DNA of 64,000 bases from Thermoanaerobaculia bacterium (lineage in GTDB: Bacteria; Acidobacteriota; Thermoanaerobaculia; UBA5066). The notes under the pieces were generated by a model. That model was not told the DNA's origin, searched no databases, and was given only the letters and a program-made list of their open reading frames with translations. The translations under genes were made by a program, and so were the position numbers. The stretch lies in NCBI GenBank assembly GCA_963809425.1, contig CAWEJK010000009.1:319982-383981 (forward strand), given 5' to 3'. This document shows, piece by piece, positions 16,373 through 58,374 of this stretch. How positions within the stretch are numbered: the stretch's first letter is position 1; each line of letters begins with the position of its first letter.

Positions 16373-17344
16373 CTAAGCCAGCCACTCGGCGGCTTCCTTC
16401 GCGTGATACGTGAGGATGAGGTCCGCGCCCGCGCGCCGCATCGACGTGAGGATCTCGAGCGTCACGCGCTTGCCGTCGATCCAGCCGTTCGCCGCCGCGG
16501 CCTTCACCATCGCGTACTCCCCGGACACGTTGTAGCAGGCGACGGGCACGTTCGTGGCCTCCTTCGCCGCGCGGACGACGTCGAGGTACGCGAGCGCGGG
16601 CTTGACCATCACGAGGTCGGCGCCCTCCTCGACGTCCGAGAGGATCTCCTTCACGCCCTCGCGCACGTTCGCCGGATCCATCTGGTAGGAGCGCCGGTCG
16701 CCGAAGGAGGGGGTCGACCCGGCGGCCTCGCGGAACGGGCCGTAGAACCCGGACGCGTACTTCGCGGCGTACGCGAGGAGCGCGACGTCGCGAAATCCCC
16801 CGCCGTCGAGCTTCGCGCGGATCGCGCCGACGCGCCCGTCCATCATGTCGGAAGGCGCGACGACGTCCGCGCCCGCCGCCGCGTGCGCGAGCGCCTGCGC
16901 CGCGAGGAGAGGCAGCGTCGCGTCGTTGTCCACGGTGCCCTCGGCGAGCGCGCCGCAGTGGCCGTGGTCCGTGTACTCGCACAGGCAGACGTCCGTCATG
17001 ACGACCGTGGCCGGGCTCTCGGCCTTGATCGCCCGCACCGCCCGGCAGACCGGGCCCTCGGGATCGGCGCCCGAAGTGCCCATCGCGTCCTTGCGCTCGG
17101 GAATCCCGAAAAGGATCACGGAGAGGACGCCGAGGGAGGCGAGGCCCTTCGCGTCTTTCGCGGCCAGGTCGGCCGAGACCCGGTCGACGCCCGGCATCGA
17201 CGGCACCGGCTGCCGCACGCCGCGTCCCGGCACGACGAAGAGCGGCGCGATGAAGTGCGACGGAGCGAGAGACGTCTCCCGCACGAGCGTCCGCAGGCTC
17301 TCGGAGCGCCGCAGGCGGCGGTAGCGGTGGAGGGGAAAGCTCAT
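16373..17344 (-). CDS. hemB: Porphobilinogen synthase (delta-aminolevulinic acid dehydratase)
   Basis: Internal ATG (MSFPLHRYRRLRRSESLRTLVRE...) is the genuine start; the upstream 40 codons are junk. Conserved active-site lysine regions are present (VAPSDMMDGRV, ...YQMDP...). The start overlaps the hemD stop (ATGA at 17341-17344). Confidence 0.9.
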   Translation of the reverse strand: MSFPLHRYRRLRRSESLRTLVRETSLAPSHFIAPLFVVPGRGVRQPVPSMPGVDRVSADLAAKDAKGLASLGVLSVILFGIPERKDAMGTSGADPEGPVCRAVRAIKAESPATVVMTDVCLCEYTDHGHCGALAEGTVDNDATLPLLAAQALAHAAAGADVVAPSDMMDGRVGAIRAKLDGGGFRDVALLAYAAKYASGFYGPFREAAGSTPSFGDRRSYQMDPANVREGVKEILSDVEEGADLVMVKPALAYLDVVRAAKEATNVPVACYNVSGEYAMVKAAAANGWIDGKRVTLEILTSMRRAGADLILTYHAKEAAEWLA

Positions 17345-18102
17345 CGTATTTCCTTCCGGAGGAGGGCGAGGAGTTCGGAGAGGCGCGCGTGGGCGGGAAC
17401 CAAAGGCGTGGGCAGCCCCCGGGCCGTGACGGCCTTCGCGGTCTCGGGCCCGAGCACGCCCCATCTTAACGGCGGGAGAGACGCGGCCGGCGCGGCCAGG
17501 GCGGCGAGAAGCGCGTCGAGACCCGCCGTCGAGCCCACGGCCACGGCGGCGAACCGTCTGGCACGGAGGTCGGAGAGGATCGACGGATTCATCTCGGAGG
17601 CGGAGAGAGGACGTTTTTCGTAGACCACGGGGGCGACGAGCTGAATGCCGAGCGCACGAATTCCCTCGAACGCCTCCGGGGCCGAATCCGAGCCGTGTGG
17701 CCAGAGGAGGCGCATGTGCGAAGGAGCAGGGGACTTCTTCAGGTAGGCGATGACGCCCGCGGCTCCCGGTATCTCGGGAACGACGATCGGCGCCGCGTTC
17801 TGGGTCGAGGCCGCGGCGCGGCGTCCCGGGTCGCTGCCCCCCATGATCACCCTTCTCAGCAGCTCCCCGGTGCCCTCGCCGACCGCCAGCATCTGCGCGA
17901 ACGACGAGCGAAAGAGCGGAAGAAGAAACCCGATCGTCTCCTTCGACGAGACGACGAGCGTCGCGCCATCCGTGTCGAACGCGAGCGCCTCGGCAATCCC
18001 CTGGGGGCGCGGCGAGACGGCGTGCGTGTAGAGAACGGTCACGTCCCCCGAGAAGGCGTCTTCGGATCCGGCGGCGCCGGAGCGAAGGAGAAGGATCCTC
18101 AC
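17341..18102 (-). CDS. hemD: Uroporphyrinogen-III synthase
   Basis: 253 aa, GTG start, HemD-like length with weak family similarity. Position in the hemA-C-D-B order supports the call. Confidence 0.65.
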   Translation of the reverse strand: MRILLLRSGAAGSEDAFSGDVTVLYTHAVSPRPQGIAEALAFDTDGATLVVSSKETIGFLLPLFRSSFAQMLAVGEGTGELLRRVIMGGSDPGRRAAASTQNAAPIVVPEIPGAAGVIAYLKKSPAPSHMRLLWPHGSDSAPEAFEGIRALGIQLVAPVVYEKRPLSASEMNPSILSDLRARRFAAVAVGSTAGLDALLAALAAPAASLPPLRWGVLGPETAKAVTARGLPTPLVPAHARLSELLALLRKEIR

Positions 18103-18130
18103 GGCGCGAGGATACCCAGTCGCGAGCGCA

Positions 18131-19175: not shown

Positions 19176-20443
19176 TTGGAGCTTTCGTCGAGGCGGAACA
19201 GGGCGCGCACGGCCGCGGCGCGCTCCAGGCGCTCCGAGCTGTCGCCTTCCTTCAGGCCGACCGTCGGATCGTGGAGGATGTGGGCGACGAGCGTCTCCGT
19301 GAGCCGCTCGACCGCGGCGCGGTCGGGCGCGCTCAGCGCCGCGAGCTTGCCGGAGTGCTTGTCGAGCTCGGCGCGCCGGATGCTCTCGAGCTTCTCGCGA
19401 AGCCCGCGCACGACGTCGGTCTGCAGGAGTCCGCTGCGCCAGTCCTGGAACTTCAGGACGCACTCCTCGACGATGGTCTCCGCGCGCGGCACTTCGCCCG
19501 CGCGGGCCCGCGCGTTCTCGGCCGCCATCTCCTGCAGCGCGTCGAGGTCGTAGCGGTAGACGTCCGCAAGCTCGCCGACCTCGAGTTCGACGTCGCGCGG
19601 CACGGCCAGATCGAGGACGAGAAGCGGTCCGCGGCGCGGCGCCGCGTGGAGCGCGGTGCGAAGCGCCCCGGCCGTCAGGACGGGCTCGGTCGCATTCGTG
19701 GCGGAGAGAACGAGGTCCACGCCCGCCGCCGCCCGGGCGCGGTCATCCCACCGCACGGCACGCCCCCGGCTGGCCGCGGCGAGAGCCTCGCCCCTTTCGT
19801 GCGAGCGGTTCGTCACGAGGATCTCCGAGACGCCGTCCTCCGCGAGGAGGCGGGCCGTGAGCTCGGCGGTCTCGCCCGCCCCGATGAGGAGGACCTTTCG
19901 GCCCTTCAGCGACTCGAAGACGCGCGCCGCGAGGCCGAGCGCGAGACCGGCGACCGAGGTGGGCTTCTGGCCGAGCGCCGTCTCCGCCCGCACGCGTTTG
20001 CCGCATTCGAGAGCGCTCATGAACAGCCGGTTCATCACCGTTCGGATCGTTCCGGCCGCCGTCGCGAGGCGGTGCGCCTCGCGGATCTGCCCGAGGATCT
20101 GCGCCTCTCCGACGACCATGGAGTCGAGGCCCGCCGCGACGCGGAAGAGATGGCGCACCGTCGCGTCGCCGCGGCCCGAGAGCGCCGCCTGCCTCAGGAC
20201 CGCGTCGTCCACGCGGTGGAAACGCGAGAAGAATCCCGCGAGCGCGTCGAAGCTGTCCTCGTGCACGGCGATCCCGTAGATCTCGGCGCGGTTACAGGTG
20301 GACACGATCGCGCCTTCCGACAGGATGTGCTCCGCGAACAGGCCGTCGAGCGCCTCACGCGCCTTCTCGGGCGTGAAGGCGAGTCTCTCTCTCAGGTCGA
20401 GAGGCGCCGCGCGATGGTCCCAACCGACGAAGAGGAGGTTCAT
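19172..20443 (-). CDS. hemA: Glutamyl-tRNA reductase
   Basis: The genuine start is MNLLFVGWDHRAAPLDLRERLAF at 20443. Family motifs are present (STCNRAEIYG, GAGETAE NAD-binding). The ~250 upstream codons of ORF 19172..21247 are junk overlapping hemX. Confidence 0.9.
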   Translation of the reverse strand: MNLLFVGWDHRAAPLDLRERLAFTPEKAREALDGLFAEHILSEGAIVSTCNRAEIYGIAVHEDSFDALAGFFSRFHRVDDAVLRQAALSGRGDATVRHLFRVAAGLDSMVVGEAQILGQIREAHRLATAAGTIRTVMNRLFMSALECGKRVRAETALGQKPTSVAGLALGLAARVFESLKGRKVLLIGAGETAELTARLLAEDGVSEILVTNRSHERGEALAAASRGRAVRWDDRARAAAGVDLVLSATNATEPVLTAGALRTALHAAPRRGPLLVLDLAVPRDVELEVGELADVYRYDLDALQEMAAENARARAGEVPRAETIVEECVLKFQDWRSGLLQTDVVRGLREKLESIRRAELDKHSGKLAALSAPDRAAVERLTETLVAHILHDPTVGLKEGDSSERLERAAAVRALFRLDESSK

Positions 20444-21282
20444 GACGTGAAGTCGTGCAGCTTGCTGACGAAGAGGTTTACGGCGGTGTACGAAAGAAGC
20501 ACGAGCAGGAACCCCGCGACCGACAGCCGCGCCGTCGAGACGGGAGCCGCGCCGCGGTGCGCGCGCAGGATCACGAAAATGTAGAACGCGAGCGTCGCGA
20601 GCGCGAACCAGATCTTCGGATCGAGCGCCCACAGCGGATGCTCGCCCTTCCACATGCGCGACGCCCAGAAGAGCCCGAGGAAAAGCCCGACCGCGAGGGC
20701 GAGGACACCGAGAGAGAGCGACGTGCGGTTCGCGCGCTCGAGGTACGAGAGGCTCGGGAGCCGCGAGGCCGGACCCGAGAAGGCGCGCTTCTTCAGCGAT
20801 CGGCCGACCCACAGATACAGGAGCGACAGCGCGCACGCGACCGCGAACGCGGCGTACGCGAGCATGTTCAGCGTGACGTGCAGCGCGAAGACCGGGCCCT
20901 TCAGCTCGGGCGCGTCCGCGTGGACGGGCGACGTCAGGGACACGGAGAGGAGCAGGAACGCGAGGGCCGCGGGCATCAGGAACGGGCCCAGGGACCGGTC
21001 CCGGTGCCGTAACTCGAGGACGATGTTCAGGACCGCGAGAAAGAACCCGAAGAGCTTCATCGAGCCGAGGAGGTCGCGGTACGGAACCGTGTGGAGCGCG
21101 GCGGACCGCGCGTAGAGCGTGCCGAAGTTGAAGGCGGCGCCGAGGACTGCGAACGCGGTCGCCGCCCGGCCGATCGCCTGGTGCGTCCGGAAGAGCGACG
21201 TCGTGTAGAGAACCGCCGACAGGGAATAGGCCACGAGGGCCGCCCAACCGAGCGTCGTCGCGAGCTGCGCGGCATCCGTCAC
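20440..21282 (-). CDS. hemX: CcsA/ResC-like cytochrome c assembly membrane protein (HemX-type, as in Bacillus hemAXCDBL)
   Basis: Polytopic membrane protein with a W/aromatic-rich CcsA-like C-terminus (LFWASRMWKGEHPLWALDPKIWFALATLAFYIFVIL). Its stop overlaps the hemA start. The start is assigned to the GTG at 21282 (VTDAAQLATTLGW...) and is uncertain. Confidence 0.6.
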   Translation of the reverse strand: MTDAAQLATTLGWAALVAYSLSAVLYTTSLFRTHQAIGRAATAFAVLGAAFNFGTLYARSAALHTVPYRDLLGSMKLFGFFLAVLNIVLELRHRDRSLGPFLMPAALAFLLLSVSLTSPVHADAPELKGPVFALHVTLNMLAYAAFAVACALSLLYLWVGRSLKKRAFSGPASRLPSLSYLERANRTSLSLGVLALAVGLFLGLFWASRMWKGEHPLWALDPKIWFALATLAFYIFVILRAHRGAAPVSTARLSVAGFLLVLLSYTAVNLFVSKLHDFTS

Positions 21283-21362
21283 GGCCGCGATTATAGGAAC
21301 CCCGTGAGAACGACGATTTCGTGCGGATGCATCAGGCGCCCCGAACCGGCTCGCGCGGCCGA

Positions 21363-21379
21363 TGCTAACCTCCCGCGCC
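21363..21379 (+). promoter_or_regulatory. Conserved 17-mer TGCTAACCTCCCGCGCC abutting the hemE start codon
   Basis: Near-identical copies lie immediately 5' of the hemN GTG (28169-28184) and in the hemN 5' duplicate (26260-26276). A variant GATGCTAATCTCGACACGCC lies at 58284-58303. Confidence 0.3.
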
Positions 21380-22423
21380 ATGCCCGATGCCGCACGGCGT
21401 CCGTCGCGCCAGCGTTTCCTCGATGCGGCCTTCGGGCGTCCGACGGACGTCCCGCCGGTGTGGCTCATGCGCCAGGCCGGCCGCTACCTGCCCGAATATC
21501 GCGACGTCCGCAAGCGCCTCAAGTTCCTCGAGCTGTGCGCCGACGTGCCGGCCGCCATCGAAGTGACGCTCCAGCCGTTCCGGCGTTTCGGGATGGACGG
21601 CGTCGTCTTCTTCTCCGACATCCTCATCCCGCTGCCGCCGATGGGCATCGAAGTCCAGCTCGACGAGGGAGGCCCGAAGCTCCCGAACCCGATCCGCACC
21701 GCCGCCGACGTCGCGAAGCTCCGGGAATTCGACCCGCACGTCGAGACCGCGTTCGTGATGGACATCCACCGCGGCATCAGGCGCATCGTCCACGACGACG
21801 CGGCCACGATCGGCTTCTGCGGGGCGCCGTGGACGCTCGCGACGTACGCGATCGAGGGCGGCTCCTCGAAGTCGTTCACGGCGGTCAAGACGATGATGCA
21901 TCGCGAGCCGAAGGTGCTCGAGGGCCTGCTCGCGAAGCTGGCCGACGCGTGCGGCCGGTACCTCGCGGCGCAGATCGAGTCGGGCGCGGACCTCGTGCAG
22001 ATCTTCGACTCGTGGGCCGGTGAGCTCTCGCGCGCCGACTACGACCGATTCGCGCGCCCCGCGACCGAGCGGCTCCTGTCGCACCTGCCGCGGCGCGGGC
22101 AGGTGCCCGTCGTCCACTTCGCCTCGGGCTCGTCGCACCTCATCGACTCGTTCGCCCGGATGCCGGTCGACGTGCTCTCGATCGACTGGAAGCTTCCGCT
22201 CGACGAGGCGCGCAAGCGCGCGCACGGCAAGGCGCTGCAGGGCAACGTCGATCCGGGCCTCCTCCTCGGAACGCCGGAGGGAGTCCGGGAAGCCGTGTAT
22301 GCCGCGCGGCGGGCGGCGGGCCCGACCGGTCACATCGTGAACCTCGGACACGGCATCCTGCCGCCCACGCCGATCGAGAACGTCGCCGCGTTCGTCGCGG
22401 CGGCGCGCGCCCCGCTGCCGTAG
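21380..22423 (+). CDS. hemE: Uroporphyrinogen decarboxylase
   Basis: URO-D signature PPVWLMRQAGRYLPEY. The second in-frame ATG at 21380 is preferred over the ORF-track start at 21362. Confidence 0.9.
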   Translation: MPDAARRPSRQRFLDAAFGRPTDVPPVWLMRQAGRYLPEYRDVRKRLKFLELCADVPAAIEVTLQPFRRFGMDGVVFFSDILIPLPPMGIEVQLDEGGPKLPNPIRTAADVAKLREFDPHVETAFVMDIHRGIRRIVHDDAATIGFCGAPWTLATYAIEGGSSKSFTAVKTMMHREPKVLEGLLAKLADACGRYLAAQIESGADLVQIFDSWAGELSRADYDRFARPATERLLSHLPRRGQVPVVHFASGSSHLIDSFARMPVDVLSIDWKLPLDEARKRAHGKALQGNVDPGLLLGTPEGVREAVYAARRAAGPTGHIVNLGHGILPPTPIENVAAFVAAARAPLP

Positions 22424-22438
22424 CGCGCGCAGCTGGCG

Positions 22439-23062
22439 TCACTCCGCGATGTCCGTCTCCGTCGAACCGGCGGGGGTCGCGCGGAAAACAAGAGGCACGG
22501 ACCCAAGGCGGATTTCGTCGCCGTCCGCAAGCGCCGTGGGCCCGGCGATCCGGCGCCCACGAACCCAGGTGCCGTTCTTGCTGCCGAGATCCTCCAGCGT
22601 GGCCACGTCTCCCGAAACGACGATCCGCGCATGGCGCCGCGAGATGGACTTCATCGAGATTACGATGGACGCGTCGTCGTCCCGCCCCAGCACGTTCTCG
22701 CCCGGCAAGAGCTCGAATTCCCGGGCCAGGTGGGTCACGCGAAACCGTGCGGCGGGCGCGACGAACGCGTCGAAGCGAAAGGCGTAGCCGAATCCGTAAA
22801 CCGTCTTGAGGAATCGGGGGCTCCGCGCATCCTCGCGGATGGCGGCCCGTACTTCGGAGACGAGGCTCTTGAGGTTCGATTCCTCAACGAAGAGGCTCGG
22901 CCAGAGCGACTCATAGAGGCTCGCCTTGGAAACGGCCTTCGGGGCGTGCCCGATGAGCAGTTCCAATAAGCGGAAGGCCTTCGGGGAGAGATGGACTGGC
23001 ACTTTTCCGCACCGCAGCTCTCGAGCCTCCGCATCGAACAGAAACTCGCCGAATCGGATCAT
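22439..23062 (-). CDS. Transcriptional regulator with N-terminal OmpR/PhoB-type winged-helix DNA-binding domain and C-terminal FHA domain (EmbR-like architecture)
   Basis: The N-terminus is trans_reg_C-like (PKAFRLLELLIGHAPKAVSKASLYESLWP...TVYGFGYAF). The C-terminus is FHA-like (ENVLGRDDDASIVISMKSISRRHARIVVSGDVATLEDLGSKNGTWVRGRRI). Confidence 0.7.
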   Translation of the reverse strand: MIRFGEFLFDAEARELRCGKVPVHLSPKAFRLLELLIGHAPKAVSKASLYESLWPSLFVEESNLKSLVSEVRAAIREDARSPRFLKTVYGFGYAFRFDAFVAPAARFRVTHLAREFELLPGENVLGRDDDASIVISMKSISRRHARIVVSGDVATLEDLGSKNGTWVRGRRIAGPTALADGDEIRLGSVPLVFRATPAGSTETDIAE

Positions 23063-23143
23063 CGAAACCTACCAGATCCCTACCATTTGCTCACGACTTC
23101 CAGCGCGCGGGGAATGCACGTTGTCGGCAGAAAGGAGAACGCC

Positions 23144-23821
23144 ATGAATCTTCAACGAAACCGCGCGCCCGCTCTTCTTCTCTCGCTGCTCTTCCTGCTC
23201 GTTTCTCCGGCGATGCTAGCGCAGGCCATGAGGGCCGAGAACGACGACGTCCAGCTGCCGGAGGTGGTCACGGAAGGGCAGCTGCTCTTCGAGTTCGTCG
23301 GGCAGGTCTCGAACTTCACCCCGACCACCTCCGCGCAGTATGGGTACTTCACGTGGGTCAGAGGCATCGACACCCTGTTCTCGGGAAGCCCGGCGAACGA
23401 GACGTCGGCACGGTTTACGTTCTACCGCGAGATGACGAACGTCGCCGTCGTCGTCAACGGGACGCTCAAGATCATCTCCCGCGAGGGGACCACGACGCTC
23501 TATCTACAGCCGTCCGGCGGCGCCACGTTCTCGAATCCCGACTCGTTCAGGGCCGGCACGCCCATCCAGACGTCTCACTCGCACCAGCAGGTCATCGTCG
23601 ACACCGTGACCTCGGCTTTCACGGTGGTCAACTTCGAAACGGTCACGGCGACGCCGCGATTCATGCTCGACGGACACGACACGACTCTGGGCCGTGTCGG
23701 AGACGTTTACCGCACTTCCAAGCAGGGCCACCTCTTCTCGCCGAGCCCTGCCGGCTATTTCAGCGGCTACTCCGTCAGCGTCTCCCGGACGACGGGCGGC
23801 AGGGGCGCGATTCAGGAATAG
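23144..23821 (+). CDS. Secreted hypothetical protein
   Basis: An AAAGGAGAA ribosome-binding site precedes the ATG at 23144. Signal peptide is MNLQRNRAPALLLSLLFLLVSPAMLAQA. No recognisable domain. Confidence 0.5.
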   Translation: MNLQRNRAPALLLSLLFLLVSPAMLAQAMRAENDDVQLPEVVTEGQLLFEFVGQVSNFTPTTSAQYGYFTWVRGIDTLFSGSPANETSARFTFYREMTNVAVVVNGTLKIISREGTTTLYLQPSGGATFSNPDSFRAGTPIQTSHSHQQVIVDTVTSAFTVVNFETVTATPRFMLDGHDTTLGRVGDVYRTSKQGHLFSPSPAGYFSGYSVSVSRTTGGRGAIQE

Positions 23822-23833
23822 GGCCGCCCGAGC

Positions 23834-26236
23834 TCAGGACGGAAACCCGACGCGCTTGATCAACGCTTCGAAGCGGGGGTCGGAACGGATCGGCTCCCAG
23901 CGCAGGTCCCGCTTGAGCCAGACGAGCCAGTGGGTTCGTTCCTCGACTGCCTTGTCCAGCCAGGCGAAGGCCTGATCCTTGTCGCCCAGCGCCGCATGAA
24001 CGAGAGCAACGGCGTAGGCGGTTACGTACTCTTTTTTCGACCGCGCCTCCAGGTTGGAGAGAACCTGGAGCGCTTCCTGGCGCTTGCCCTGGATCCCGTA
24101 GACATACCCGATTCCCGCGACCGTCGGCACCCACTCCTTGAGCGGTCCGGTCGCCTGGTATTCGGCGATGGCCTGGTCGTAAAGACCCTTCGCCTGATAG
24201 ACCCGCCCGAGAAAGAGATGCGCGGGCGGGTACTGGGGGTTCATTTCGAGGGCCTTTCGCAATTCCTCCGCCGCCTGGTCCTGCTCGTGGCTGTAATGAA
24301 GAAGGAAACCCATGTCCGACTCGATCGGGACGGAGAGGGGATCGAGCTCGTGCGCTCGCTGGATCTGGGCGCGTGCTTCGGGAAGGCGCCCGGTCGCAGT
24401 CAAGAGGTAGGCGTACCAGTCGTGGGCCGTCGCGTAGTTTGAATTCAGCTCGATGGCTCGCCGAAATTCGCTTTCGGCTCCGGCCCAGTCCCAGTCGAAA
24501 TAGAACTTGACGTAGGCGAGCGACGCGTGCGGCTCGGCGAGCGTGGCATCGATCTCGAGCGCCCTCTCAGCGGCCGATCGCGCCTTGGGAAAAACCTCTC
24601 GGGGCGCGAGAAGGCTCAAGTAGCCGAGCTGAGTGTAGGAGTCGGCGATCCCCGAGTACGCCACCGCATAGGCCGGATCGACGTCCAGGGCCTGCTGGAA
24701 GAACCCGATCGCTTTCTTCAGGTCTTCGCCGCCGCGCTTATTCCAGAAATACCGCCCCTTCACATAGGCCTCGAAAGCGGCCGGGTCGACGCTCCTGGTC
24801 TTCGCGAGCTGCACCAGCTCCGGTGAAGCCAGCTCGAGCCGGCCGGCGCGGGCGATCGCCCCCGCAATTTCACTTTCCAGGGCGACCACGTCGCCGAGGT
24901 CGCGCTCGTACGTCTGAGCCCAGAGGTGCTTGTCCGACGCTCCGTCGATGAGCTGGGCCGTCACGCGGACCTTCCCGTCCGCGCGCGAGACCGATCCCTC
25001 CACGACCGCCTCGACGCCGAGCTCCTTTGCGATCTCGGGCAGTCGTTTTTTCGTGTCGCGGTACGACATGACTGAAGTTCGGGAGGTGACGCGGAGCCCG
25101 CTGATTCGGCCGAGACGGCCGATCAGCTCTTCGGTAATACCGTCGGCGAAATACTCCTGGCTCGGGTCACCCGAAAGATTCTGAAGGGGAAGCACGGCGA
25201 CCGATCGGATAGCGGCGCCCTTCCCACCGCCAGTCAGGCGGTTTCGCAATCCGCCGATGTCGAAGATGGCAAAGAGCGCAACGGCCAGGACGATTACGCC
25301 CGCTGCGATGGCGGCAGCCCGACCGCGGCGCACCGCCGGTCCCGCCGTCGCGACGCCGGACATCTGAATCGCCGAAGCCGACGTCGACGCAATCTCGCGG
25401 AGCGCGTAGGTCAGATCGCGGGTCGACTGAAACCTCTCGTCAGGGGCCTTCTCCAGGCAGCGCGTGATGACGCGCGCGAGCGCGAGCGGGATCGTCTTCC
25501 CCGATTCCGCGAGATCCGGCGGTGACTCCTTGAGGATGGCCGCCATCGTGTCGGCGCTGGTCTTGCCCGGGAACGCCCGCCTGCCTGTCACCATCTCGTA
25601 GAGCACGGATCCGAACGAGAAAATGTCGCTCCGCGGGTCCACCGGAAGCCCGCGGACCTGCTCGGGAGACATATAGGTGGCCGTCCCCATGACCGTTCCG
25701 GGCTCCGTCGCCGTTACCGTCGCGAGAGCGCTTTCGGCCCCGACGGCGGCATCCGGCTCGTGCCGCGCCAGACCGAAATCGAGAATCTTCACGCGCCCGT
25801 CCTCGGTCAGAAAGACGTTCTCGGGCTTCAGGTCGCGGTGGACGATGCCCCGCGCATGTGCCGCCGCGAGCCCATCGGCGATCGAAATGGCGATCTCCGT
25901 CGCCTTGCGCCACGCGAGGGACTCCCGATCGAGGCGAGCGCGCAGCGTCTCACCGCGGAGGAGCTCAGTGACCGAGTAGCAAACGTCGCCTTCGATCCCA
26001 AAGTCGTGGATCGCAAGGATGTTCGGATGGGACAGTGCCGCGACTGCGCGTGCTTCGCGTTCGAAGCGGGCGATCGCCGCCGAGTCCGAGATGAGATGCT
26101 CGCGGAGCACCTTGACGGCGACCTCACGGCCGAGACGCGTGTCACGCGCCCGGTAGATGGTGCCCATTCCCCCTGAGCCCAGCTCGCCGAGAACCTCATA
26201 GGGCCCGAACCGAGCGCCTGCGGGCAACAATTCCAA
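23834..26236 (-). CDS. Ser/Thr protein kinase with TM segment, TolB-N-like periplasmic module and C-terminal TPR repeats
   Basis: Hanks kinase motifs are present (GSGGMGTIYRA, VAVKVL, HRDLKPENVFL, DFGLAR, GTATYMSPEQ). A TM helix (AAIAAGVIVLAVALFAIF) and TPR-like C-terminal repeats follow. The start is assigned to the TTG at 26236 (LELLPAGARFGPYEV); the upstream ~175 codons of the ORF are junk. Confidence 0.8.
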   Translation of the reverse strand: MELLPAGARFGPYEVLGELGSGGMGTIYRARDTRLGREVAVKVLREHLISDSAAIARFEREARAVAALSHPNILAIHDFGIEGDVCYSVTELLRGETLRARLDRESLAWRKATEIAISIADGLAAAHARGIVHRDLKPENVFLTEDGRVKILDFGLARHEPDAAVGAESALATVTATEPGTVMGTATYMSPEQVRGLPVDPRSDIFSFGSVLYEMVTGRRAFPGKTSADTMAAILKESPPDLAESGKTIPLALARVITRCLEKAPDERFQSTRDLTYALREIASTSASAIQMSGVATAGPAVRRGRAAAIAAGVIVLAVALFAIFDIGGLRNRLTGGGKGAAIRSVAVLPLQNLSGDPSQEYFADGITEELIGRLGRISGLRVTSRTSVMSYRDTKKRLPEIAKELGVEAVVEGSVSRADGKVRVTAQLIDGASDKHLWAQTYERDLGDVVALESEIAGAIARAGRLELASPELVQLAKTRSVDPAAFEAYVKGRYFWNKRGGEDLKKAIGFFQQALDVDPAYAVAYSGIADSYTQLGYLSLLAPREVFPKARSAAERALEIDATLAEPHASLAYVKFYFDWDWAGAESEFRRAIELNSNYATAHDWYAYLLTATGRLPEARAQIQRAHELDPLSVPIESDMGFLLHYSHEQDQAAEELRKALEMNPQYPPAHLFLGRVYQAKGLYDQAIAEYQATGPLKEWVPTVAGIGYVYGIQGKRQEALQVLSNLEARSKKEYVTAYAVALVHAALGDKDQAFAWLDKAVEERTHWLVWLKRDLRWEPIRSDPRFEALIKRVGFPS

Positions 26237-26259
26237 ATCCTGAAGGCATTCTACGCCGG

Positions 26260-26359
26260 TGCTAACCTCGCGCCCGCGAGCGCCATTCCGATCCGACTCG
26301 GCGGCGAGACGCTCCCGATGACCACGGAGCTGTTCGACAAAGACAACGTCCAGTCTTAA
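26260..26359 (+). pseudogene. Decayed ~100-bp duplicate of the hemN 5' end, including the TGCTAACCTCGCGCCCG motif
   Basis: 26260-26355 is ~90% identical to 28169-28265. The copy reads (A)SAIPIRLGGETLPMTTELFDKDNVQS then stops. The GTG start is mutated to GCG. Confidence 0.6.
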
Positions 26360-26423
26360 GGACGATTCGTCAATATTGCGTCCGGCACGATCCGTGCTGT
26401 ACGTCACAAAACCGGAGGCCCCG

Positions 26424-28064
26424 ATGAAGAACTCAACGGTTGCCGGCCTGGTGCTTCTCCTCGCCGCACCTGTCCAGGCGCAGACACCGAACGCCCCGCG
26501 CCCCGTGAAGGGCTCCGTCGAGGCCGTCGCCGCCGAGGTCGAAGTGCTCGTCGTCGACAGGAAGGGCACGCCGGTCGACGGCCTCACGAGGGACGACTTC
26601 AGGCTCTTCGTGAACGGCAAGGAGATGCCGCTCGACTGGTTCGAGGCGCCGCCGGCGCCGGGCGCTTCCGCGACGCCTTCCGTTCCCGTTGCTCCAGCCG
26701 CGGCGGCGGCTCCGCCGGCAACGGCGTCGACGCTTTCGTCCCGCGCCCACAGCACGGTCTTCGTCATCTCATCCCTCCACGTCGACGCGGGCGCCCAGAG
26801 AGCAGGCCTCGATGCCCTGCGCGCGTATGCGGACCGCCTGCCGGACGGCGAACAGGCCTCCGTCTATCTCCTGGACAACGGCGCTCGCCGCCTCGTGGGA
26901 TTCACGAGCGACCGCAAGGTGCTGAAGAAGGCGATCGAACGGCCGAAACGAATCCTTCCGTCGTCGTACGCCTTCGACGCGCGGGACGACGAGTGGGTCG
27001 GCCGCTCGCGCCAGATGCTTCGAAACCTCGGGACCGTTTTCGACGGCCTCGCGAGCCGGCCCGAATCGAAGACGGTCGTCATGCTCACGGGCCCGCTCTG
27101 GCCCACGGGAAACATCGTCCCGCCGAGCGGCGCGAGCCTTTTCAAGGGGTCGCACGCCGCCCCCGCGGGCGGCCCCAGGTCTTCGGCCAGCCCTCTCGAC
27201 ACGGCCGGCGCGGTCACGCATTACAGCAACCCGGTGACGACCCGAGGCGAGCGCCAGTGGAACTTCCTGGGGGAGGCCAGAGACCTCGAGAACCAGGCTT
27301 TCCTCGCGCGCGCCACGGTCGTCGCGCTCGACCCGAGCGGCATCCTCGCGCCGGCCGGACAGGCCGACTCGAAGGAGCCCGACAACCGGGACCTTCTCGC
27401 GGCGGGCGATTCGTGGGAGTTTCGGAACGACACGTTCGCCTTGATCGCGGAGGCGACGGGCGGCTCCCGCCTCGGGTTCTCGAACAAGCCCGTCGACCTC
27501 ATCCTCGGCGCGTCGCGCCTCCTCGCAAGGCGTTACCGCCTCGGCTTCACGCCGCCGGACGGGACGTCCGCGCGGCGGGACATCCGCGTGGAGATGGCGC
27601 GCCCCGGCCTCGTCGTGCGCACGGCGAGCGGCCAGCGCTCCCTGACGGCCGAGACCGCCGCGCGCGCGCGCTTCTCGGGACTCCTCCTTTCGTCGGATGC
27701 GCCCCAGGGTGACTTCACGATCGCGGTCGAGATGAAGTCCCGGGTCTCGAAACGCACGGACGACGCGCTCCCCTTCGACATCCTCGTGCCCGTTTCCGGC
27801 GTCTACGCCGAGGAGCGGGGCGAGAGCAGGCGGGCGGAGCTGGAGCTTCTCGTCTCGGCGGTCGACGGCGAGGGACGCGCCTCGGAGCCGATCGTCATCC
27901 CGTTCTCCGTCGAGCTCGACACGGCGGCGGCCCGGGACGGCGCCTTCTTCCGCAAGGACTCGAGCTTCAGCATCGACAAGCGCTGGAAGGGGCGCCTGTT
28001 CGTCGGCGTGCGCGACACGGCCACGAACCGCCTCGGGGCGGTCGCGATGCCGATCGGAGGCTGA
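26424..28064 (+). CDS. Secreted VWA-domain protein (paralog of 59848..61482)
   Basis: A GGAGG ribosome-binding site lies 6 nt before the ATG at 26424. Signal peptide is MKNSTVAGLVLLLAAPVQAQ. The protein shares a VDG(K/L)...F(V/F)... VWA-like core and a conserved C-terminal block (...DTATNR(L/I)G...) with 59848..61482. Confidence 0.5.
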   Translation: MKNSTVAGLVLLLAAPVQAQTPNAPRPVKGSVEAVAAEVEVLVVDRKGTPVDGLTRDDFRLFVNGKEMPLDWFEAPPAPGASATPSVPVAPAAAAAPPATASTLSSRAHSTVFVISSLHVDAGAQRAGLDALRAYADRLPDGEQASVYLLDNGARRLVGFTSDRKVLKKAIERPKRILPSSYAFDARDDEWVGRSRQMLRNLGTVFDGLASRPESKTVVMLTGPLWPTGNIVPPSGASLFKGSHAAPAGGPRSSASPLDTAGAVTHYSNPVTTRGERQWNFLGEARDLENQAFLARATVVALDPSGILAPAGQADSKEPDNRDLLAAGDSWEFRNDTFALIAEATGGSRLGFSNKPVDLILGASRLLARRYRLGFTPPDGTSARRDIRVEMARPGLVVRTASGQRSLTAETAARARFSGLLLSSDAPQGDFTIAVEMKSRVSKRTDDALPFDILVPVSGVYAEERGESRRAELELLVSAVDGEGRASEPIVIPFSVELDTAAARDGAFFRKDSSFSIDKRWKGRLFVGVRDTATNRLGAVAMPIGG

Positions 28065-28168
28065 GGATGCGCGCTCGCGCCGCCGCGTGCCCGGGCGGTG
28101 ACGGTCCTCGAGTGAGCGCGGCCCCGACCTCCTGATGCAATTGAAGGACGAGACTCCGTCGCGACGAG

Positions 28169-28184
28169 TGCTAACCTCGCGCCC
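28169..28184 (+). promoter_or_regulatory. TGCTAACCTCGCGCCC motif immediately 5' of the hemN GTG start
   Basis: Same motif as 21363-21379 and 26260-26276. Confidence 0.3.
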
Positions 28185-29612
28185 GTGAGCGCCATACCGA
28201 TCCGTCTCGGCGGCGAGACGCTCCCGATGACCACGGAGCTGCTCGAGAAGTACAACGTCCAGGGTCCCCGCTACACGTCCTATCCGACGGCGCCCGAGTG
28301 GACCGACAAGGCCCCCGCGGACGCCGAGGCCGCCTGCGCGCGGGCGAACGCGAAGAAGTCGCCGGTCTCGCTGTACGTCCACCTCCCCTTCTGCGACGAG
28401 CAGTGCTGGTTCTGCGGCTGCTTCATGAAGGTCGTCCCGAAGCCCGATCGCGCCGGCGAGTCGCGCGACGAGATCGAGCCGTACCTCGCGGACCTCCACC
28501 GGGAGATCGAGGTCCTCGCCTCGCGCATCGACCGCTCGCGCCCCGTGAAGCAGATCCACTGGGGCGGCGGCACCCCCACGTACCTCTCGCCGCAGCAGGC
28601 GGACAGCCTCGCGACGCATCTCCTCGACACGTTCCGCCCCGCCGCGGACGCCGAAGTCTCGGTCGAGGTGGACCCGCGCGTGACGTCGAAGGAGCACCTC
28701 GCGGTCCTCCGCAGGCGCGGCTTCAACCGCGTCTCGATGGGCGTGCAGGACTTCGACCCCGAAGTGCAGGAGCTCGTGAACCGCGTCCAGCCCTTCGAGA
28801 TGACGAAGGCCCTCGTCGACGACGCGCGCGCCCTCGGCTACAGCTCCGTGAACCTCGACATGATCTACGGCCTCCCCGGCCAGAAACGCGCCGGGTTCGA
28901 GAAGAGCGTCGAGCAGATCCTCTCGCTGCGCCCGGACCGCGTCGCGATGTACTCCTACGCGCACGTCCCGTGGCTCAAGCGGCCCCAGCGCGTCCTCGCG
29001 GCGCACCTGCCGGAAGGCACCGAGAAGTTCGCGATCTTCGTCTCCGGCATCGAGCGCTTCGTCGCGGCGGGCTACGTCTACATCGGCATGGACCACTTCG
29101 CGCTGCCCCACGACGAGATCGTGAAGGCGCAGCGGGACCGCACGCTCCACCGCAATTTCCAGGGCTACACGACGCACGCGGGGTGCGACCTGTACGGGCT
29201 CGGCGTCTCGGCGATCGGCTCGATCGACGACATGTACGTCCAGAACACGAAGGACTACGCCGACTACCACCGGGCGACGGAGGAAGCGCGCTTCTCGACC
29301 GTGAAGGGCCACCGGTTGACGCCGGCCGATTTCCTGAGGCGGGACGTCATCACGCGGCTCCTCTGTCACTGCGTCATCGACAAGCGTGCGATCGAGCGTG
29401 CCTGGAGACTCTCCTCGTTCGACGAGACGTTCGCCTCGGCCGTGGCACGGCTCCCCGAATTCGTCCTGGACGGGATGGTCGCACTGACGCCCGACGAGAT
29501 CCGCGTGACGACGCTCGGGCGGATCTTCATCCGGAACGTCGCCATGCTGTTCGACGAGTACTTCGAGAAGAAGGCTCCGACGGCGCCGAAAATCTTCTCT
29601 CGTACCCTGTGA
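28185..29612 (+). CDS. hemN: Oxygen-independent coproporphyrinogen III oxidase (radical SAM)
   Basis: Family motifs YNVQGPRYTSYPTAPEW and the radical-SAM cysteines (LYVHLPFCDEQCWFCGC) are present; 475 aa. Confidence 0.9.
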   Translation: MSAIPIRLGGETLPMTTELLEKYNVQGPRYTSYPTAPEWTDKAPADAEAACARANAKKSPVSLYVHLPFCDEQCWFCGCFMKVVPKPDRAGESRDEIEPYLADLHREIEVLASRIDRSRPVKQIHWGGGTPTYLSPQQADSLATHLLDTFRPAADAEVSVEVDPRVTSKEHLAVLRRRGFNRVSMGVQDFDPEVQELVNRVQPFEMTKALVDDARALGYSSVNLDMIYGLPGQKRAGFEKSVEQILSLRPDRVAMYSYAHVPWLKRPQRVLAAHLPEGTEKFAIFVSGIERFVAAGYVYIGMDHFALPHDEIVKAQRDRTLHRNFQGYTTHAGCDLYGLGVSAIGSIDDMYVQNTKDYADYHRATEEARFSTVKGHRLTPADFLRRDVITRLLCHCVIDKRAIERAWRLSSFDETFASAVARLPEFVLDGMVALTPDEIRVTTLGRIFIRNVAMLFDEYFEKKAPTAPKIFSRTL

Positions 29613-29652: not shown

Positions 29653-30639
29653 ATGAGCGACCGTCTCGGGGTTCTCCTCGTCCAGCTCGGCGGGCCCGCC
29701 TCCCGGGCCGAGCTTCGACCGTTTCTCTATGAGCTATTCGTAGACCCTGAAATCCTCGGAATCAAGTTCACCCCTCTGCGCCGCCTCGTCGCCTGGACGA
29801 TCGCGACGACGCGCGCGCCGAAGTCGGCCGCGATCTACGAGCGCATCGGATGGTCGCCGATCCGCCGCTGGTCCGAGACGCAGGCGCGCCTCCTCGAGGC
29901 CGAGCTCGCGAAGCGGTCTGCGGGAGCAGGCTCCCCGCCCGTCGTGCGGATCGGGATGACGTGCTCCTTTCCGTTCGTCGAGGACGCGCTCCTGGACCTC
30001 CGCAAGGAAGGCGCCACGCGCCTCCTCGTTCTGCCGCTCTATCCCCAGTACTCCGTGACGACGACGCGCGGGTCGTTCAACCGGGTGACGAGCGCCCTCG
30101 CGAAGCTCGGCTGGAGTCCCGAACGGACAAACGCGCCCGACGCCTGGTACGACGAGCCCGGCTTCGTCGCCGCGCACGTCGCCCGCATCCGCGCCGCGGC
30201 CGCCACGCTGCCCGACGCCGATCCGTCCCGGACGGTCGTGCTCTATTCCGCGCACTCGCTGCCGGTGAAGACGGTCGAGACGCAGAAGGACCCGTATCCC
30301 CGCCACATCGAGGCAACCGTGAGGGTGATCGACGCGGCGCTCGGGGGCCGCACCCGCTCGCGCCTCGGCTATCAGTCGAAGGTCGGCCCGGTGCCGTGGC
30401 TTGGACCGTCGACGCCCGAGGTCCTCGCGGAGCTCGCGAAGGACGGCGAGAAGCAGGTGCTCGTCGTGCCGGTCGCGTTCGTGTCCGATCACGTCGAGAC
30501 GCTTTACGAGATCCGCCTCCTCTTCGGGGGCGCGGCGGCGCGCCTCGGAATTCCCCACTACGTCGTCGCCGAAGGGCTCAACGACCACCCGGAGTTCATC
30601 CGGGGTCTCGCGGACGTCGTCCGGAAGGCGGCCCCGTGA
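29653..30639 (+). CDS. hemH: Ferrochelatase
   Basis: 328 aa with family motifs (GVLLVQLGGP, ...LPLYPQYS..., ...VPVAFVSDHVETL). Confidence 0.9.
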   Translation: MSDRLGVLLVQLGGPASRAELRPFLYELFVDPEILGIKFTPLRRLVAWTIATTRAPKSAAIYERIGWSPIRRWSETQARLLEAELAKRSAGAGSPPVVRIGMTCSFPFVEDALLDLRKEGATRLLVLPLYPQYSVTTTRGSFNRVTSALAKLGWSPERTNAPDAWYDEPGFVAAHVARIRAAAATLPDADPSRTVVLYSAHSLPVKTVETQKDPYPRHIEATVRVIDAALGGRTRSRLGYQSKVGPVPWLGPSTPEVLAELAKDGEKQVLVVPVAFVSDHVETLYEIRLLFGGAAARLGIPHYVVAEGLNDHPEFIRGLADVVRKAAP

Positions 30640-32048
30640 CGCGCGTCGTCGTCCTCGGGGGCGGGATCGCCGGCCTCACGGCCGCGTTCCGGCGGGCGGG
30701 CACGGGCGAGACGGTGGTCCTCGAGGCCGGGCCCCGCGCGGGGGGCTCGATCCGGACGATCCGGGAGGACGGATTCACCCTCGAGTGCGGACCGAACACG
30801 CTGCGCACGACGGAAGCCGCCGAGCGCCTCCTCGCCGATCTCGGCCTCGAGCCGGAGACCGTCAAGGCAGACGGCAAGGCTCCGCGGTGGATCGTGCGCG
30901 GCGGGTCGCCCCGCGCGGTCGTGCCCGGGCCGGCGGCGCTGTTCAACACGGTCTTCACGGCGAAAGGAAAGCTGCGCCTCCTCAAGGAGCCGTTCGTCGC
31001 GCCGAGGCCCGCGACTCTCGGCGACGAAAGCGTCCACTCGTTCTTCGCGCGCCGCTTCGGCGAGGAAGCCGCCCTCTACGGCGCGGGACCGATGGTCTCC
31101 GGGGTTTACGCGGGCGACCCGCGCGCGCTTTCGATCCGCTCGGCGTTTCCGCGCCTCTGGCTGGCGGAGGGAAGATCCGGAAGCGTCATAAGGGATTTTC
31201 TTAGAAGGAAAGAGAAGAAAGTAGATGCGCCGAAAGAAGGTGCAAAGGCCGGTCCGCAGCGCGCTCCGGCGCGCCATCGGGCTCGGACCCTGACGTTCGG
31301 GGGCGGCCTCTTCACCCTCATAGAAAGTCTTCAGACCCGCTTGAGCGCGCGACCCGGGTGCCGCCTCGAAACGAACGCGGGCGCAGTCGCGATCGAGGGT
31401 CCTTTCCCTTCCCCCGGCCCGCGCTGGCGCGTCCGCACGGCCGACGGCCGCGCCTTCGACGCGGATGTCCTCGTCTCGACGCTTTCGGCCCCTCAGACCG
31501 CGCGGCTCTTCGGCGACGTCCTGCCGCGCTCCGCCGCCTCCCTCGCCGCCGTGCCGTACTCCCCGGTGACGGTCGTCCTCGCGGCCTATCGGGCTCCGGC
31601 GTCGCCGGCCGACGCGCCGCGCGGGTTCGGCGGGCTCATCCCGCAGGTGGAGGGGTTCCGCTCCCTCGGAATCCTCTATCCCGCGTCGCTTTTCACGGGC
31701 CGGGCGCCCGAAGGCTTCGTGCTGACGACGTCGTTCCTCGGCGGCGCGCTCGACCGCGCGTTCGCGGGCGCGCCGGACGCCGATCTCCTCGCGGTGGCGG
31801 GCTCCGAAGTGGCCCGTTTCTTCCCGCGGCTCGGTCCGCCTTCGCGCTCGTGGATCGTGCGGTGGCCCGAGGCGATCCCGCAGATGCCGCTCGGCCATCA
31901 CCGCACGCTCGCGGCCCTCGACGCGGACCTCGCGGCCCTCGAGGCCGTGGCTCCCGGAGCACTTTTCGTGACGGGAGGCTTCCGCGACGGCATCGCGCTC
32001 GGCGAACGCATCGCGTGCGGCGAGGCGATCGGCATGGCGCTCACGTAG
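30636..32048 (+). CDS. hemY: Protoporphyrinogen oxidase (FAD, HemY-type)
   Basis: The GTG at 30636 overlaps the hemH TGA stop (GTGA). The FAD fold motif VVVLGGGIAGLTAAF is present. The upstream part of ORF 29850..32048 is junk. A K/E-rich stretch (RRKEKKVDAPKEGAKAG) is encoded by a polypurine tract at 31187-31245. Confidence 0.85.
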   Translation: MTRVVVLGGGIAGLTAAFRRAGTGETVVLEAGPRAGGSIRTIREDGFTLECGPNTLRTTEAAERLLADLGLEPETVKADGKAPRWIVRGGSPRAVVPGPAALFNTVFTAKGKLRLLKEPFVAPRPATLGDESVHSFFARRFGEEAALYGAGPMVSGVYAGDPRALSIRSAFPRLWLAEGRSGSVIRDFLRRKEKKVDAPKEGAKAGPQRAPARHRARTLTFGGGLFTLIESLQTRLSARPGCRLETNAGAVAIEGPFPSPGPRWRVRTADGRAFDADVLVSTLSAPQTARLFGDVLPRSAASLAAVPYSPVTVVLAAYRAPASPADAPRGFGGLIPQVEGFRSLGILYPASLFTGRAPEGFVLTTSFLGGALDRAFAGAPDADLLAVAGSEVARFFPRLGPPSRSWIVRWPEAIPQMPLGHHRTLAALDADLAALEAVAPGALFVTGGFRDGIALGERIACGEAIGMALT

Positions 32049-41690: not shown

Positions 41691-41749
41691 GGTTCGCGCG
41701 AGTATATCGAACCAGCCATGAAGCGTTCTAAACGCTACAATCGGGCCGG

Positions 41750-43414
41750 ATGACCGTCCCCGCGGGGAAATTCTCCGACCACCTGACCGAAGTCTACTTC
41801 ACCGACCTGAAGCTCCCGCACGCCGTGAGCGCGGGCATCGCGGGCTGTGGATTCATCCGGGCGACGCCCATCCAGGCCGCGACGCTCCCCATCCTCCTCG
41901 CCGGACGGGACGTCGCCGCGCAGGCGCAAACCGGGACGGGGAAGACCGCCGCCTACCTCATCGCGATCTTCACGCATTTCGTGCGGACGAGGCGCTCCAG
42001 GCCGTCGCCGAACCCGCGCGCGCTCATCGTGGCGCCGACGCGCGAGCTGGCCGTGCAGATCCAGGAGGACGCAAAGGCGCTCGGACACTTCCTCAAGCCC
42101 CGCATCGTGACCGTCTTCGGCGGCATCGACTACGGCCGCCAGCGCGACCAGCTGCGCGCGGGCTGCGACCTTCTCATCGGAACGCCCGGGCGGCTCCTGG
42201 ACTACGAGCAGCAGGGCGCGACCTCGTTCGGAGAGGTGGAATCGCTCGTCGTCGACGAGGCGGACCGCCTCTTCGACCTCGGTTTCATCAAGGATCTGCG
42301 GCGCATCCTGCGGCGCTGCCCGCCGCCCGGCCGCCGCCACTCGATGCTCTTCTCCGCCACGCTCTCGCTCCGCGTGATGGAGCTGGCGTACGAGCACCTG
42401 AACGACGCGCGGAAAATCGAGATCCGGCCCGAGCAGATCACGGCCGACCGCGTCACGCAGGTCCTCTACCACGTCTCGCAGCGCGAGAAGATCCCGCTTC
42501 TCCTCAACCTCCTGCGCCGGGAGGGCGTCGAGCGCACGATGCTCTTCGTGAACACGAAGCGCTTCGCCGAGCGCCTCGTCTCGAACCTCGAGCGGCACGG
42601 CTTCAAGATCGGCGCGCTCACCGGGGACATCCCGCAGCCGCGGCGCCTCAAGATCCTCCAGGACTTCAAGAGCGGCGTCCTTCCCCTGCTCGTCGCGACG
42701 GATGTCGCGTCGCGCGGGCTCCACATCGACGGCGTCACGCACGTCATCAACGTGGACCTTCCGCAGGATCCCGAGGACTACGTCCACCGGATCGGGCGCA
42801 CCGCGCGCGCCGGCCAGGCCGGAAAGGCGATCTCGCTCGCGGACGAGGACTACGTCTTCTCACTCGACGCGATCCAGCGCCTCATCGGCATGAAGATTCC
42901 GGTCGAGTTCGCCGACGACAAGCTCTTCGCCGCGGCGAAACCGGCGCCCGCCGTGAAGCCGGCGGCGCCGAGGAGCCCTGCAAAAGAAGAGAAGACGGCG
43001 CCTCCGGCGCCGGAGATTTCCTCGAAGGTGGTAGAGGCGGCGGTGGCGCTTCCCGCCCGGCCGCGCGCGACGGCAGCGGCGCAGCCCGAACGCGTCACGG
43101 AGCGCGAGCCGGCCGCTGCGGCTCCATCCGCTTTCGAGGAAATCCCCGTCTCTCTCCCCTCTCCCGTTTCGGCATTCGCAGAATCTTCTTCCGAATCTTC
43201 TTCCGACCCATCTTCCGAAGAATCCCCGGCCCTTCCCGCCGATTTCTGGACGCGCGAGGCGTTCGGCCTCGCGGTGCCGCCGGGCGGATTCGGGACCGAG
43301 CCCTCGGAACCTCCGCTGCCGCCCCCGGATCTCCGCGTCGCGCCTCCGAAGCGCCGCAGGCGGCGCCGCGGGCGCCGCGTGGCGGGCCGCGTCGAAGCGG
43401 GCGCGCCGGCCTGA
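41750..43414 (+). CDS. DEAD-box ATP-dependent RNA helicase with low-complexity S/E/P-rich C-terminal tail
   Basis: Motifs Q (GFIRATPIQ), I (AQTGTGKT), II (DEAD), III (SAT) and VI (HRIGRTARAG) are all present. Confidence 0.9.
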   Translation: MTVPAGKFSDHLTEVYFTDLKLPHAVSAGIAGCGFIRATPIQAATLPILLAGRDVAAQAQTGTGKTAAYLIAIFTHFVRTRRSRPSPNPRALIVAPTRELAVQIQEDAKALGHFLKPRIVTVFGGIDYGRQRDQLRAGCDLLIGTPGRLLDYEQQGATSFGEVESLVVDEADRLFDLGFIKDLRRILRRCPPPGRRHSMLFSATLSLRVMELAYEHLNDARKIEIRPEQITADRVTQVLYHVSQREKIPLLLNLLRREGVERTMLFVNTKRFAERLVSNLERHGFKIGALTGDIPQPRRLKILQDFKSGVLPLLVATDVASRGLHIDGVTHVINVDLPQDPEDYVHRIGRTARAGQAGKAISLADEDYVFSLDAIQRLIGMKIPVEFADDKLFAAAKPAPAVKPAAPRSPAKEEKTAPPAPEISSKVVEAAVALPARPRATAAAQPERVTEREPAAAAPSAFEEIPVSLPSPVSAFAESSSESSSDPSSEESPALPADFWTREAFGLAVPPGGFGTEPSEPPLPPPDLRVAPPKRRRRRRGRRVAGRVEAGAPA

Positions 43415-58275: not shown

Positions 58276-58374
58276 GACCCCGATGCTAATCTCGACACGC
58301 CGTGGTTTGAAAGGGCGGCGGGAGCGACGCGCAATCCGCGCTCCGGGCGGCTTCGTGTCAAACTCTTCGCGGCC

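Follow-up and report, generated by a model that had tools for sequence, protein, structure and literature searches.

The motif that lies directly 5' of the start codons of hemE and hemN in the window (the whole stretch of 64,000 nucleotides that was analysed, with ~68% G+C) is, with a probability of about 0.85, an ordinary sigma-70-type extended -10 promoter that would make the mRNAs of both genes leaderless. RNA polymerase is predicted to start at, or 1-2 bases from, the A or G of the start codon, the expected transcription starts being the A of ATG 21380 (hemE) and the G of GTG 28185 (hemN), and translation would proceed without a Shine-Dalgarno (SD) sequence. In such an arrangement, the start codon would stand flush with the motif as a consequence of promoter geometry and not of an operator overlapping the start, and the TG extension would offset both the weak hexamer, which matches TATAAT at 3/6 positions, and the absence of a -35 element. 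The leaderless-mRNA promoter was one of the readings put forward in the first-pass annotation, and it is supported by the geometry of the element, by about ten like gene starts and by the free-n pattern of its conservation. From the sequence and by analogy with known systems, we infer the transcription start sites, the recognition by sigma and the leaderless translation of hemE and hemN.

Anatomy and context of the hemE and hemN elements

Both elements have the same layout, namely a TGn (extended -10), the hexamer TAACCT (-10) and a GC-rich stretch of 7-8 nt that runs up to the start codon (Table 1). The TG lies one base 5' of the hexamer, T1, A2 and T6 of the hexamer are present, and the hexamer ends 8 nt before the start codon at hemE and 7 nt before it at hemN, that is, within the 6-8 nt spacing of leaderless genes. 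No TTGACA-like hexamer is present 16-18 nt upstream, and a scan of 20900-28400 for consensus -35/-10 pairs gave 0 sites; such a scan cannot detect promoters that lack a -35 element, but its null result is still informative. Likewise, no GGAG, GAGG or AGGA is found 3-12 nt upstream of the hemE or the hemN start, in agreement with the earlier remark that no recognisable SD sequence is present.

Table 1. Coordinates of the genes, predicted promoters and other elements discussed in the text (window positions).
Feature	Position	Strand	Details
MtrC/MtrF-like gene	9472-11598	-	multihaem-cytochrome operon with several CXXCH proteins
Upstream box TGATGCAACTGAA	11714..11726	-	32 nt upstream of TACTCT (11687-11682), multihaem-cytochrome operon
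hemD	17341-18102	-	HEM4; then hemB (ALAD), hemL (Aminotran_3)
Predicted leaderless promoter, hemD-hemB-hemL	18100..18114	-	TATCCT, cgcgcc (6 nt), GTG 18102
ccsA/hemX-like gene	20440-21282	-	then hemA, hemC
Predicted leaderless promoter, hemX/ccsA-like-hemA-hemC operon	21280..21295	-	TATAAT, cgcggcc (7 nt), GTG 21282
Upstream box TGATGCATCCGCA	21322..21334	-	32 nt upstream of TATAAT, hemX-like-hemA-hemC operon
Predicted hemE promoter	21363..21379	+	TGC 21363-21365, TAACCT 21366-21371, 8-nt discriminator cccgcgcc 21372-21379
hemE, uroporphyrinogen decarboxylase, 347 aa	21380..22423	+	predicted leaderless; start conserved in relatives
FHA + OmpR-type winged-helix protein	22439-23062	-	hemE-hemN interval
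Unknown protein	23144-23821	+	hemE-hemN interval
Ser/Thr kinase with TPR repeats	23834-26236	-	hemE-hemN interval
Duplicated hemN 5' fragment	26258..26353	+	promoter + 5' sequence equivalent to about 56 codons; compare 28167-28262
Unknown 547-aa secreted-protein gene	26421-28064	+	hemE-hemN interval
Upstream box TGATGCAATTGAA	28133..28145	+	32 nt upstream of hemN -10
Predicted hemN promoter	28169..28184	+	TGC 28169-28171, TAACCT 28172-28177, 7-nt discriminator cgcgccc 28178-28184
hemN, oxygen-independent coproporphyrinogen oxidase, 475 aa	28185..29612	+	GTG start; conserved N-terminal peptide
hemH	29653-30639	+	3' of hemN
Protoporphyrinogen-oxidase-like gene	30636-32048	+	3' of hemH
Non-haem example, DEAD-box helicase	41736..41752	+	TACAAT, 8 nt, ATG
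Further non-haem site	37769-37783	-	same architecture as 41736..41752
Further non-haem site	46217-46232	+	same architecture as 41736..41752
Further non-haem site	54858-54874	+	same architecture as 41736..41752
Methylmalonyl-CoA mutase gene	56695-58275	-	predicted leaderless; MM_CoA_mutase match from residue 11
'Fourth variant' ATGCTAATCT	58283..58292	.	complement of the predicted mutase -10

The motif copies at the starts of hemE and hemN are present as had been described, both in position and in sequence: TGCTAACCTCCCGCGCC occupies 21363-21379, directly 5' of the hemE ATG 21380, and TGCTAACCTCGCGCCCG occupies 28169-28185, its final G doubling as the G of the hemN GTG 28185. The 17-mer TGCTAACCTCGCGCCCG occurs again at 26260-26276, where GTG is replaced by GCG. 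This copy, which had been reported as retained in a hemN fragment, does lie within such a fragment (26258-26353); since it is the first part of a 96-nt stretch duplicated from the 5' end of hemN, it is not independent, and the window contains two independent motif copies. The claim of three copies with a common core is thus correct for the exact 10-mer TGCTAACCTC, with 3 occurrences in the window vs 0.01 expected (at least 3 in 0/100 shuffles), but only two of the three are independent. The shorter string TGcTAACCT also occurs 3 times, and a looser search for the 17-mer (up to 3 mismatches) gave 3 matches vs 1.34 expected in the window, which alone is not significant. CNCGCGCC, which makes up the 3' half of the motif, is a generic GC-rich discriminator that is seen 3' of most -10 hexamers in the window, where like discriminators include TATCCTcgcgccGTG, TATAATcgcggccGTG and TACAATcgggccggATG.

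A fourth variant, TGCTAATCTC at 58284-58293, had been listed beside the three copies; it is not a copy of the element but the reverse complement of the predicted TAGCAT -10 of the methylmalonyl-CoA mutase gene, ATGCTA at 58283-58288 being the complement of a TAGCAT that stands 7 nt 5' of ATG 58275 (-). This TAGCAT (-) overlaps a TAATCT (+) by 2 nt in the 99-nt spacer of two divergent genes, and the hexamer pair at 58283-58292 may be a bidirectional promoter. The DUF4388/HDOD gene at 58375 has neither an SD sequence nor a nearby -10, and the plus-strand TAATCT might or might not be its promoter hexamer.

The start codons of both genes were assigned by comparison with relatives. HemE shares 90% identity with its relatives over residues 1-347, and no in-frame start codon is found from 21380 to its conserved RFLDAAFG segment. 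The in-frame ATG 21362 within the motif was rejected as the hemE start, since it is missing from many relatives, which read cctgaTAACCT. Full-length relatives of HemN are encoded in other genomes, the closest being Thermoanaerobaculia MAGs (Acidobacteriota) with 83-89% HemN identity. The N-terminal peptide (V/M)SAIPIRLxGETLPM is kept in all 36 relatives, and the differences among L001-L003 between GTG 28185 and ATG 28227 fall mostly at third codon positions, which identifies GTG 28185 as the hemN start. ATG 28227 was accordingly rejected, as the 14 codons upstream of it are conserved as protein. An exact-protein look-up of HemN from either candidate start returned no matching record.

The motif is located within the complete haem cluster of the window, in which the hemX/ccsA-like-hemA-hemC and hemD-hemB-hemL operons also have predicted leaderless promoters (Table 1). 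In relatives and across the phylum, hemN lies directly 3' of hemE; the two genes overlap (GTGA) in L001, L085 and L087, are 53 nt apart in L083 and are separated by 5.7 kb in the window (22424-28168), and in other relatives this junction has taken up insertions that differ in size. Within the interval of the window, the duplicated hemN fragment differs from the intact copy at 8 of 96 nt (~92% identity, GTG -> GCG) and is situated between the Ser/Thr kinase gene (-) and the 547-aa gene (+), ~65 nt upstream of the latter, whose promoter it may now provide. A comparable case was observed in L095, where a 33-nt copy of that contig's own hemE promoter and first four codons (L095:3724-3756, cf. L095:1256-1290) lies ~100 nt upstream of an SD-led hemN; in both this copy and the hemN fragment of the window, the left boundary is situated 2-3 nt 5' of the motif's TG. 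Together, the two cases indicate that short promoter-bearing duplications occur in the clade, and promoters were apparently gained through such duplications when insertions parted hemN from hemE. Elsewhere in the window, a purine-rich, low-GC leader (agagcaggaagcaggaaagaaagaggaaaagaaagaaagacaaagATG, ~32056-32100, +) precedes a 609-aa gene at 32101 and is unusual against the 68% G+C of the window.

Conservation in relatives and the same layout at other genes

A metagenome scan with HemE yielded ~40 Thermoanaerobaculia contigs (72-94% protein identity); the clade DNA sample (374 kb) comprises haem-gene neighbourhoods only. Upstream of hemE, TAANNT is found in 36/37 unique regions and reads TAACCT in 34/36. 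The TG is present in 32/36, its n being C in 24, A in 8, G in 3 and T in 1, the start codon follows 6-10 nt 3' of the hexamer, and the flanks further upstream are unalignable. All 36 hemE and 18 hemN sequences, which were anchored on TAANNT, share T1, A2 and T6. Across the hemE relatives, the n of TGn is the only motif position that varies freely, and a free n beside a fixed TG and hexamer is what recognition by a sigma factor of the sigma-70 family predicts, and not what a dimeric operator does. In those relatives where 9-10 nt separate the hexamer from the start codon, the mRNA may carry a leader of 1-3 nt rather than be strictly leaderless. Furthermore, Terriglobia-like acidobacteria have TGCTATCAT, TGCTATGAT or TGTTATGAT 12-20 nt 5' of hemE, which suggests that an extended -10 at this gene is old in the phylum.

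The hemN gene is preceded in 18 unique relatives by TG[C/G]TAACCT or gtgTAATCT, with 6-7 nt between the hexamer and the GTG (TG in 15/18); in L001, L085 and L087, this promoter lies inside the last hemE codons. The 13 other unique hemN sequences have no such promoter and show either a GTGA/ATGA overlap with the hemE stop together with a GAGG SD sequence, or a plain SD sequence. The hemN orthologues thus alternate between a predicted leaderless promoter of their own and SD-led coupling to hemE. At the hemX-like gene, TATAAT is present in 20/20 of the unique sequences listed and is followed by 6-8 nt and a start codon in at least 17/20.

The same layout is encountered well beyond hemE and hemN. 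Only 78 TANNNT hexamers occur in the window on both strands (128 kb), of which 9 stand at a spacing of 5-9 nt before coding-like ORFs (at least 90 aa), vs 0-4 in four control spacing bins. The genes with a spacing of 6-8 nt include: the haem genes hemN, hemE, hemD and the hemX-like gene; genes for a DEAD-box helicase, a HhH-GPD glycosylase, an aldehyde dehydrogenase, the methylmalonyl-CoA mutase and a Vgb-lyase-like protein; and the gene for a secreted protein starting at 36211. Altogether, about 10-12 of the ~45 genes of the window, mostly identified by Pfam and for the larger part unconnected with haem, have a TANNNT 6-8 nt before the start. SD-led genes (GGAGG) are also present, e.g. 4131(-), 11598(-) and 48877(+). 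Among the predicted leaderless promoters of the window, the TG extension is found only at hemE and hemN, whose hexamer is the furthest from TATAAT, a distribution that fits a TG compensating for a weak -10.

In the 374 kb of clade DNA, TANNNT shows a spacing peak at 6/7/8 nt of 10/18/30 unique N-termini over a background of 0-6. The control hexamers TSNNNT and TANNNS give no comparable three-bin peak, TANNNS reaching 16 at spacing 6 alone. At hemE and hemN, the hexamer spacing, the lack of an SD sequence and this controlled positional peak are all consistent with leaderless genes, and the layout that would produce leaderless mRNAs is common in this acidobacterial genome.

A separate observation concerns the 894-aa ORF at 35087-37771(-), in which an aldehyde dehydrogenase domain covers residues 2-455 only. 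A TACAAT-N7-ATG at 36211, in the frame of this ORF, starts a signal-peptide-like protein of 374 aa, which is a separate, predicted leaderless gene in L001-L003; the dehydrogenase of L002 has 505 aa. Either the stop codon between two genes was lost, or the frame is shared by chance.

An upstream box and other readings of the motif

Three non-homologous promoters, namely those of hemN, of the hemX-like-hemA-hemC operon and of the multihaem-cytochrome operon, have the sequence TGATGCA-NN-yGmA 31-33 nt 5' of their -10 hexamer (Table 1). The spacing of 31-33 nt is common to all matches in the clade DNA (21 in 374 kb, 14 of them unique). Across relatives, the box is kept at both hemN and the hemX-like gene; hemE has no box at a fixed distance. 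Centred near -45 in promoters that lack a -35, the box may be the site of an activator or an UP-like element of a haem/cytochrome regulon, and it is a better candidate for a regulatory site than the flagged motif itself. The GATGCAT within it may resemble NsrR/Rrf2 half-sites, and no second half-site is present. In the cytochrome operon, an ORF of 23 codons (MKTATSFERLFVNVSQIHFRQGG, 11601-11672, -) begins 9 nt after TACTCT and ends just 5' of the MtrC-like gene; the AAGGAGG SD sequence of this SD-led gene lies within it, and its first ~14 residues are kept in L001, where the ORF has 15 codons. It could be translated as a leaderless upstream ORF, or it could be no more than a conserved 5' UTR.

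With this box in view, a broader role for the motif can be entertained: TGnTAACCTC might be a tetrapyrrole-specific module, recognised by a sigma factor of its own or by a regulator whose site overlaps the -10, that spread by short promoter duplications and that, together with the TGATGCA box, would define an undescribed haem/cytochrome regulon in Thermoanaerobaculia. We consider this unlikely. It is also improbable that the 10-mer TGCTAACCTC is, besides or in place of a -10, the site of a haem, iron or oxygen regulator (a repressor that would occlude the promoter and start, or a dedicated alternative sigma factor) that would co-regulate hemE and hemN. In favour of such a regulator, the hemE and hemN promoters agree at all four 'free' positions and at the following C, TGNTAACCT, like the 10-mer, is confined within the 374 kb of clade DNA to the hemE and hemN promoters and their duplicates (~3 matches being expected by chance in 374 kb, by our own calculation), and the inner ACC of the hexamer with the following C is kept in 34/36 hemE and 15-16/18 hemN promoters. 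However, the TACAAT and TAGGAT of neighbouring promoters are unchanged in L001-L003, and since these promoters keep their own hexamers equally well, the conservation of the whole TAACCT needs no special factor. Moreover, the sole free position is the n of TGn, as recognition by sigma region 3 predicts, the hemX-A-C (TATAAT) and hemD-B-L (TATCCT) promoters of the same cluster lack the motif, and so do the 13 unique hemN orthologue sequences with SD-led starts.

The shape of the element also differs from that of an operator. The 10-mer is a short asymmetric footprint with variable flanks, and a search for dyads or direct repeats around it found only GC-only 6-mers, including inverted repeats, that are not conserved in relatives. 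The suggestion of an operator overlapping the start therefore finds no support. As for iron, the IdeR/DtxR iron box has the consensus TTAGGTTAGGCTAACCTAA, a 19-bp palindrome of two 9-bp half-sites. The GCTAACCT of the motif equals the right half-site, and the haem/iron metabolism context is shared; by contrast, the left half-site agrees at 2/9 positions, the motif is non-palindromic, and its freely varying position among relatives is the C of GCTAACCT. The best matches to the full box are 10/19 (hemE) and 8/19 (hemN), the window contains no site within 3 mismatches of the box, and the iron box was rejected because only a half-site is present. A haem- or iron-responsive repressor, as had also been proposed, is thus unsupported, given that only half an iron box is found, that other haem promoters differ and that many hemN genes lack the motif. 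The analysis gave no indication of a special switch that senses haem or iron.

The likeness of the copies could also be purely historical, i.e. the product of a short duplication, with the motif lacking a present function at one or both genes. Promoter-bearing duplications are known in the clade, as described above for the window and L095, and the segments of hemE and of hemN from L001 (CCGrTGCTAACCTCsCGCGC) agree at 17/20 positions by our reading. A duplication accounts for the origin of the likeness but not for its retention: both copies are kept in dozens of genomes amid randomised adjacent intergenic DNA, and neither gene has an alternative SD or promoter signal. A functionless motif is accordingly very improbable. 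Under the extended -10 reading, the likeness would be due in part, probably, to descent through a short promoter-segment duplication and in part to how common TAnCCT-type hexamers with a C and a GC-rich discriminator on their 3' side are in the genome.

Least probable of all is an action of the motif in the RNA of longer transcripts, for instance as an ACCUCC/ACCUCG anti-SD look-alike that modulates ribosome access or hemE-hemN coupling: although the hemN copies of L001, L085 and L087 would lie within a would-be hemE-hemN mRNA, no SD-like pairing partner is found nearby, an Rfam scan of the whole window for structured RNAs gave zero matches at the gathering score, no promoter-like element was identified 5' of the hemE copy, and the conservation of TG, a free n and TAnnnT is the pattern of a DNA promoter and not of a base-paired RNA.

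Relation to known promoter types

In Proteobacteria, the FNR/Anr/Dnr-activated hemN promoters have a class II site, TTGAT-N4-ATCAA, centred at -41.5. The TGATGCA box resembles this arrangement in being a site at a fixed distance from a -35-less hemN promoter and in being common to cytochrome and haem operons, but its centre is near -45 and its sequence does not fit; the right arm of the FNR-type site agrees at 2-3/5 positions by our reading, and this family assignment was rejected.

Extended -10 promoters of the type TGnTATAAT are known from E. coli galP1 and from many Gram-positive and mycobacterial promoters. The hemE and hemN elements share with them the TG one base 5' of the hexamer, the free base between the two, the lack of a -35 and a weak -10. 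They differ in that TAACCT has 3/6 positions of the consensus, and the contact with sigma region 3.0 is a prediction.

The closest counterparts are the leaderless genes of Actinobacteria and Deinococcus-Thermus, predicted also for Acidobacteria. Such genes can be recognised by a TANNNT ~10 bp 5' of the start codon, and in the 3/3 Acidobacteria genomes examined, 9.7-19.4% of the genes were predicted to be of this kind (Zheng et al. 2011, PMC3160421). In Deinococcus deserti, 47% of the mRNAs have the AUG or GUG at their very 5' end (de Groot et al. 2014, PMC4007540), and the SigA -10 motif of M. smegmatis is TANNNT (Martini et al. 2019, PMC6448022). The genes described here share with this class the TAnnnT 6-8 nt before ATG or GTG, the lack of an SD sequence, the GC-rich genome, the low information of the middle hexamer positions and the switching of orthologues between SD-led and predicted leaderless starts, a switching also described by Zheng et al. 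2011 (PMC3160421). The hem cluster appears to be a clean natural case of such switching, hemN alternating in close relatives between SD-led coupling to hemE and a putative leaderless promoter of its own. The share of about 10-12/~45 genes compares with the 9.7-19.4% predicted for the three Acidobacteria. What sets hemE and hemN apart is the TG extension, which the other predicted leaderless promoters of the window lack.

For annotation, this means that about a quarter of the genes in this uncultured acidobacterial lineage appear to be leaderless, and with so many of them, gene callers that expect an SD sequence will misplace starts. In the present case, the start of hemN is GTG 28185 and not the ATG 14 codons on, and that of hemE is not the ATG inside the motif. 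In summary, the hemE and hemN elements, as far as their predicted architecture indicates, belong to a known kind, that of leaderless-mRNA promoters, with an added extended -10.
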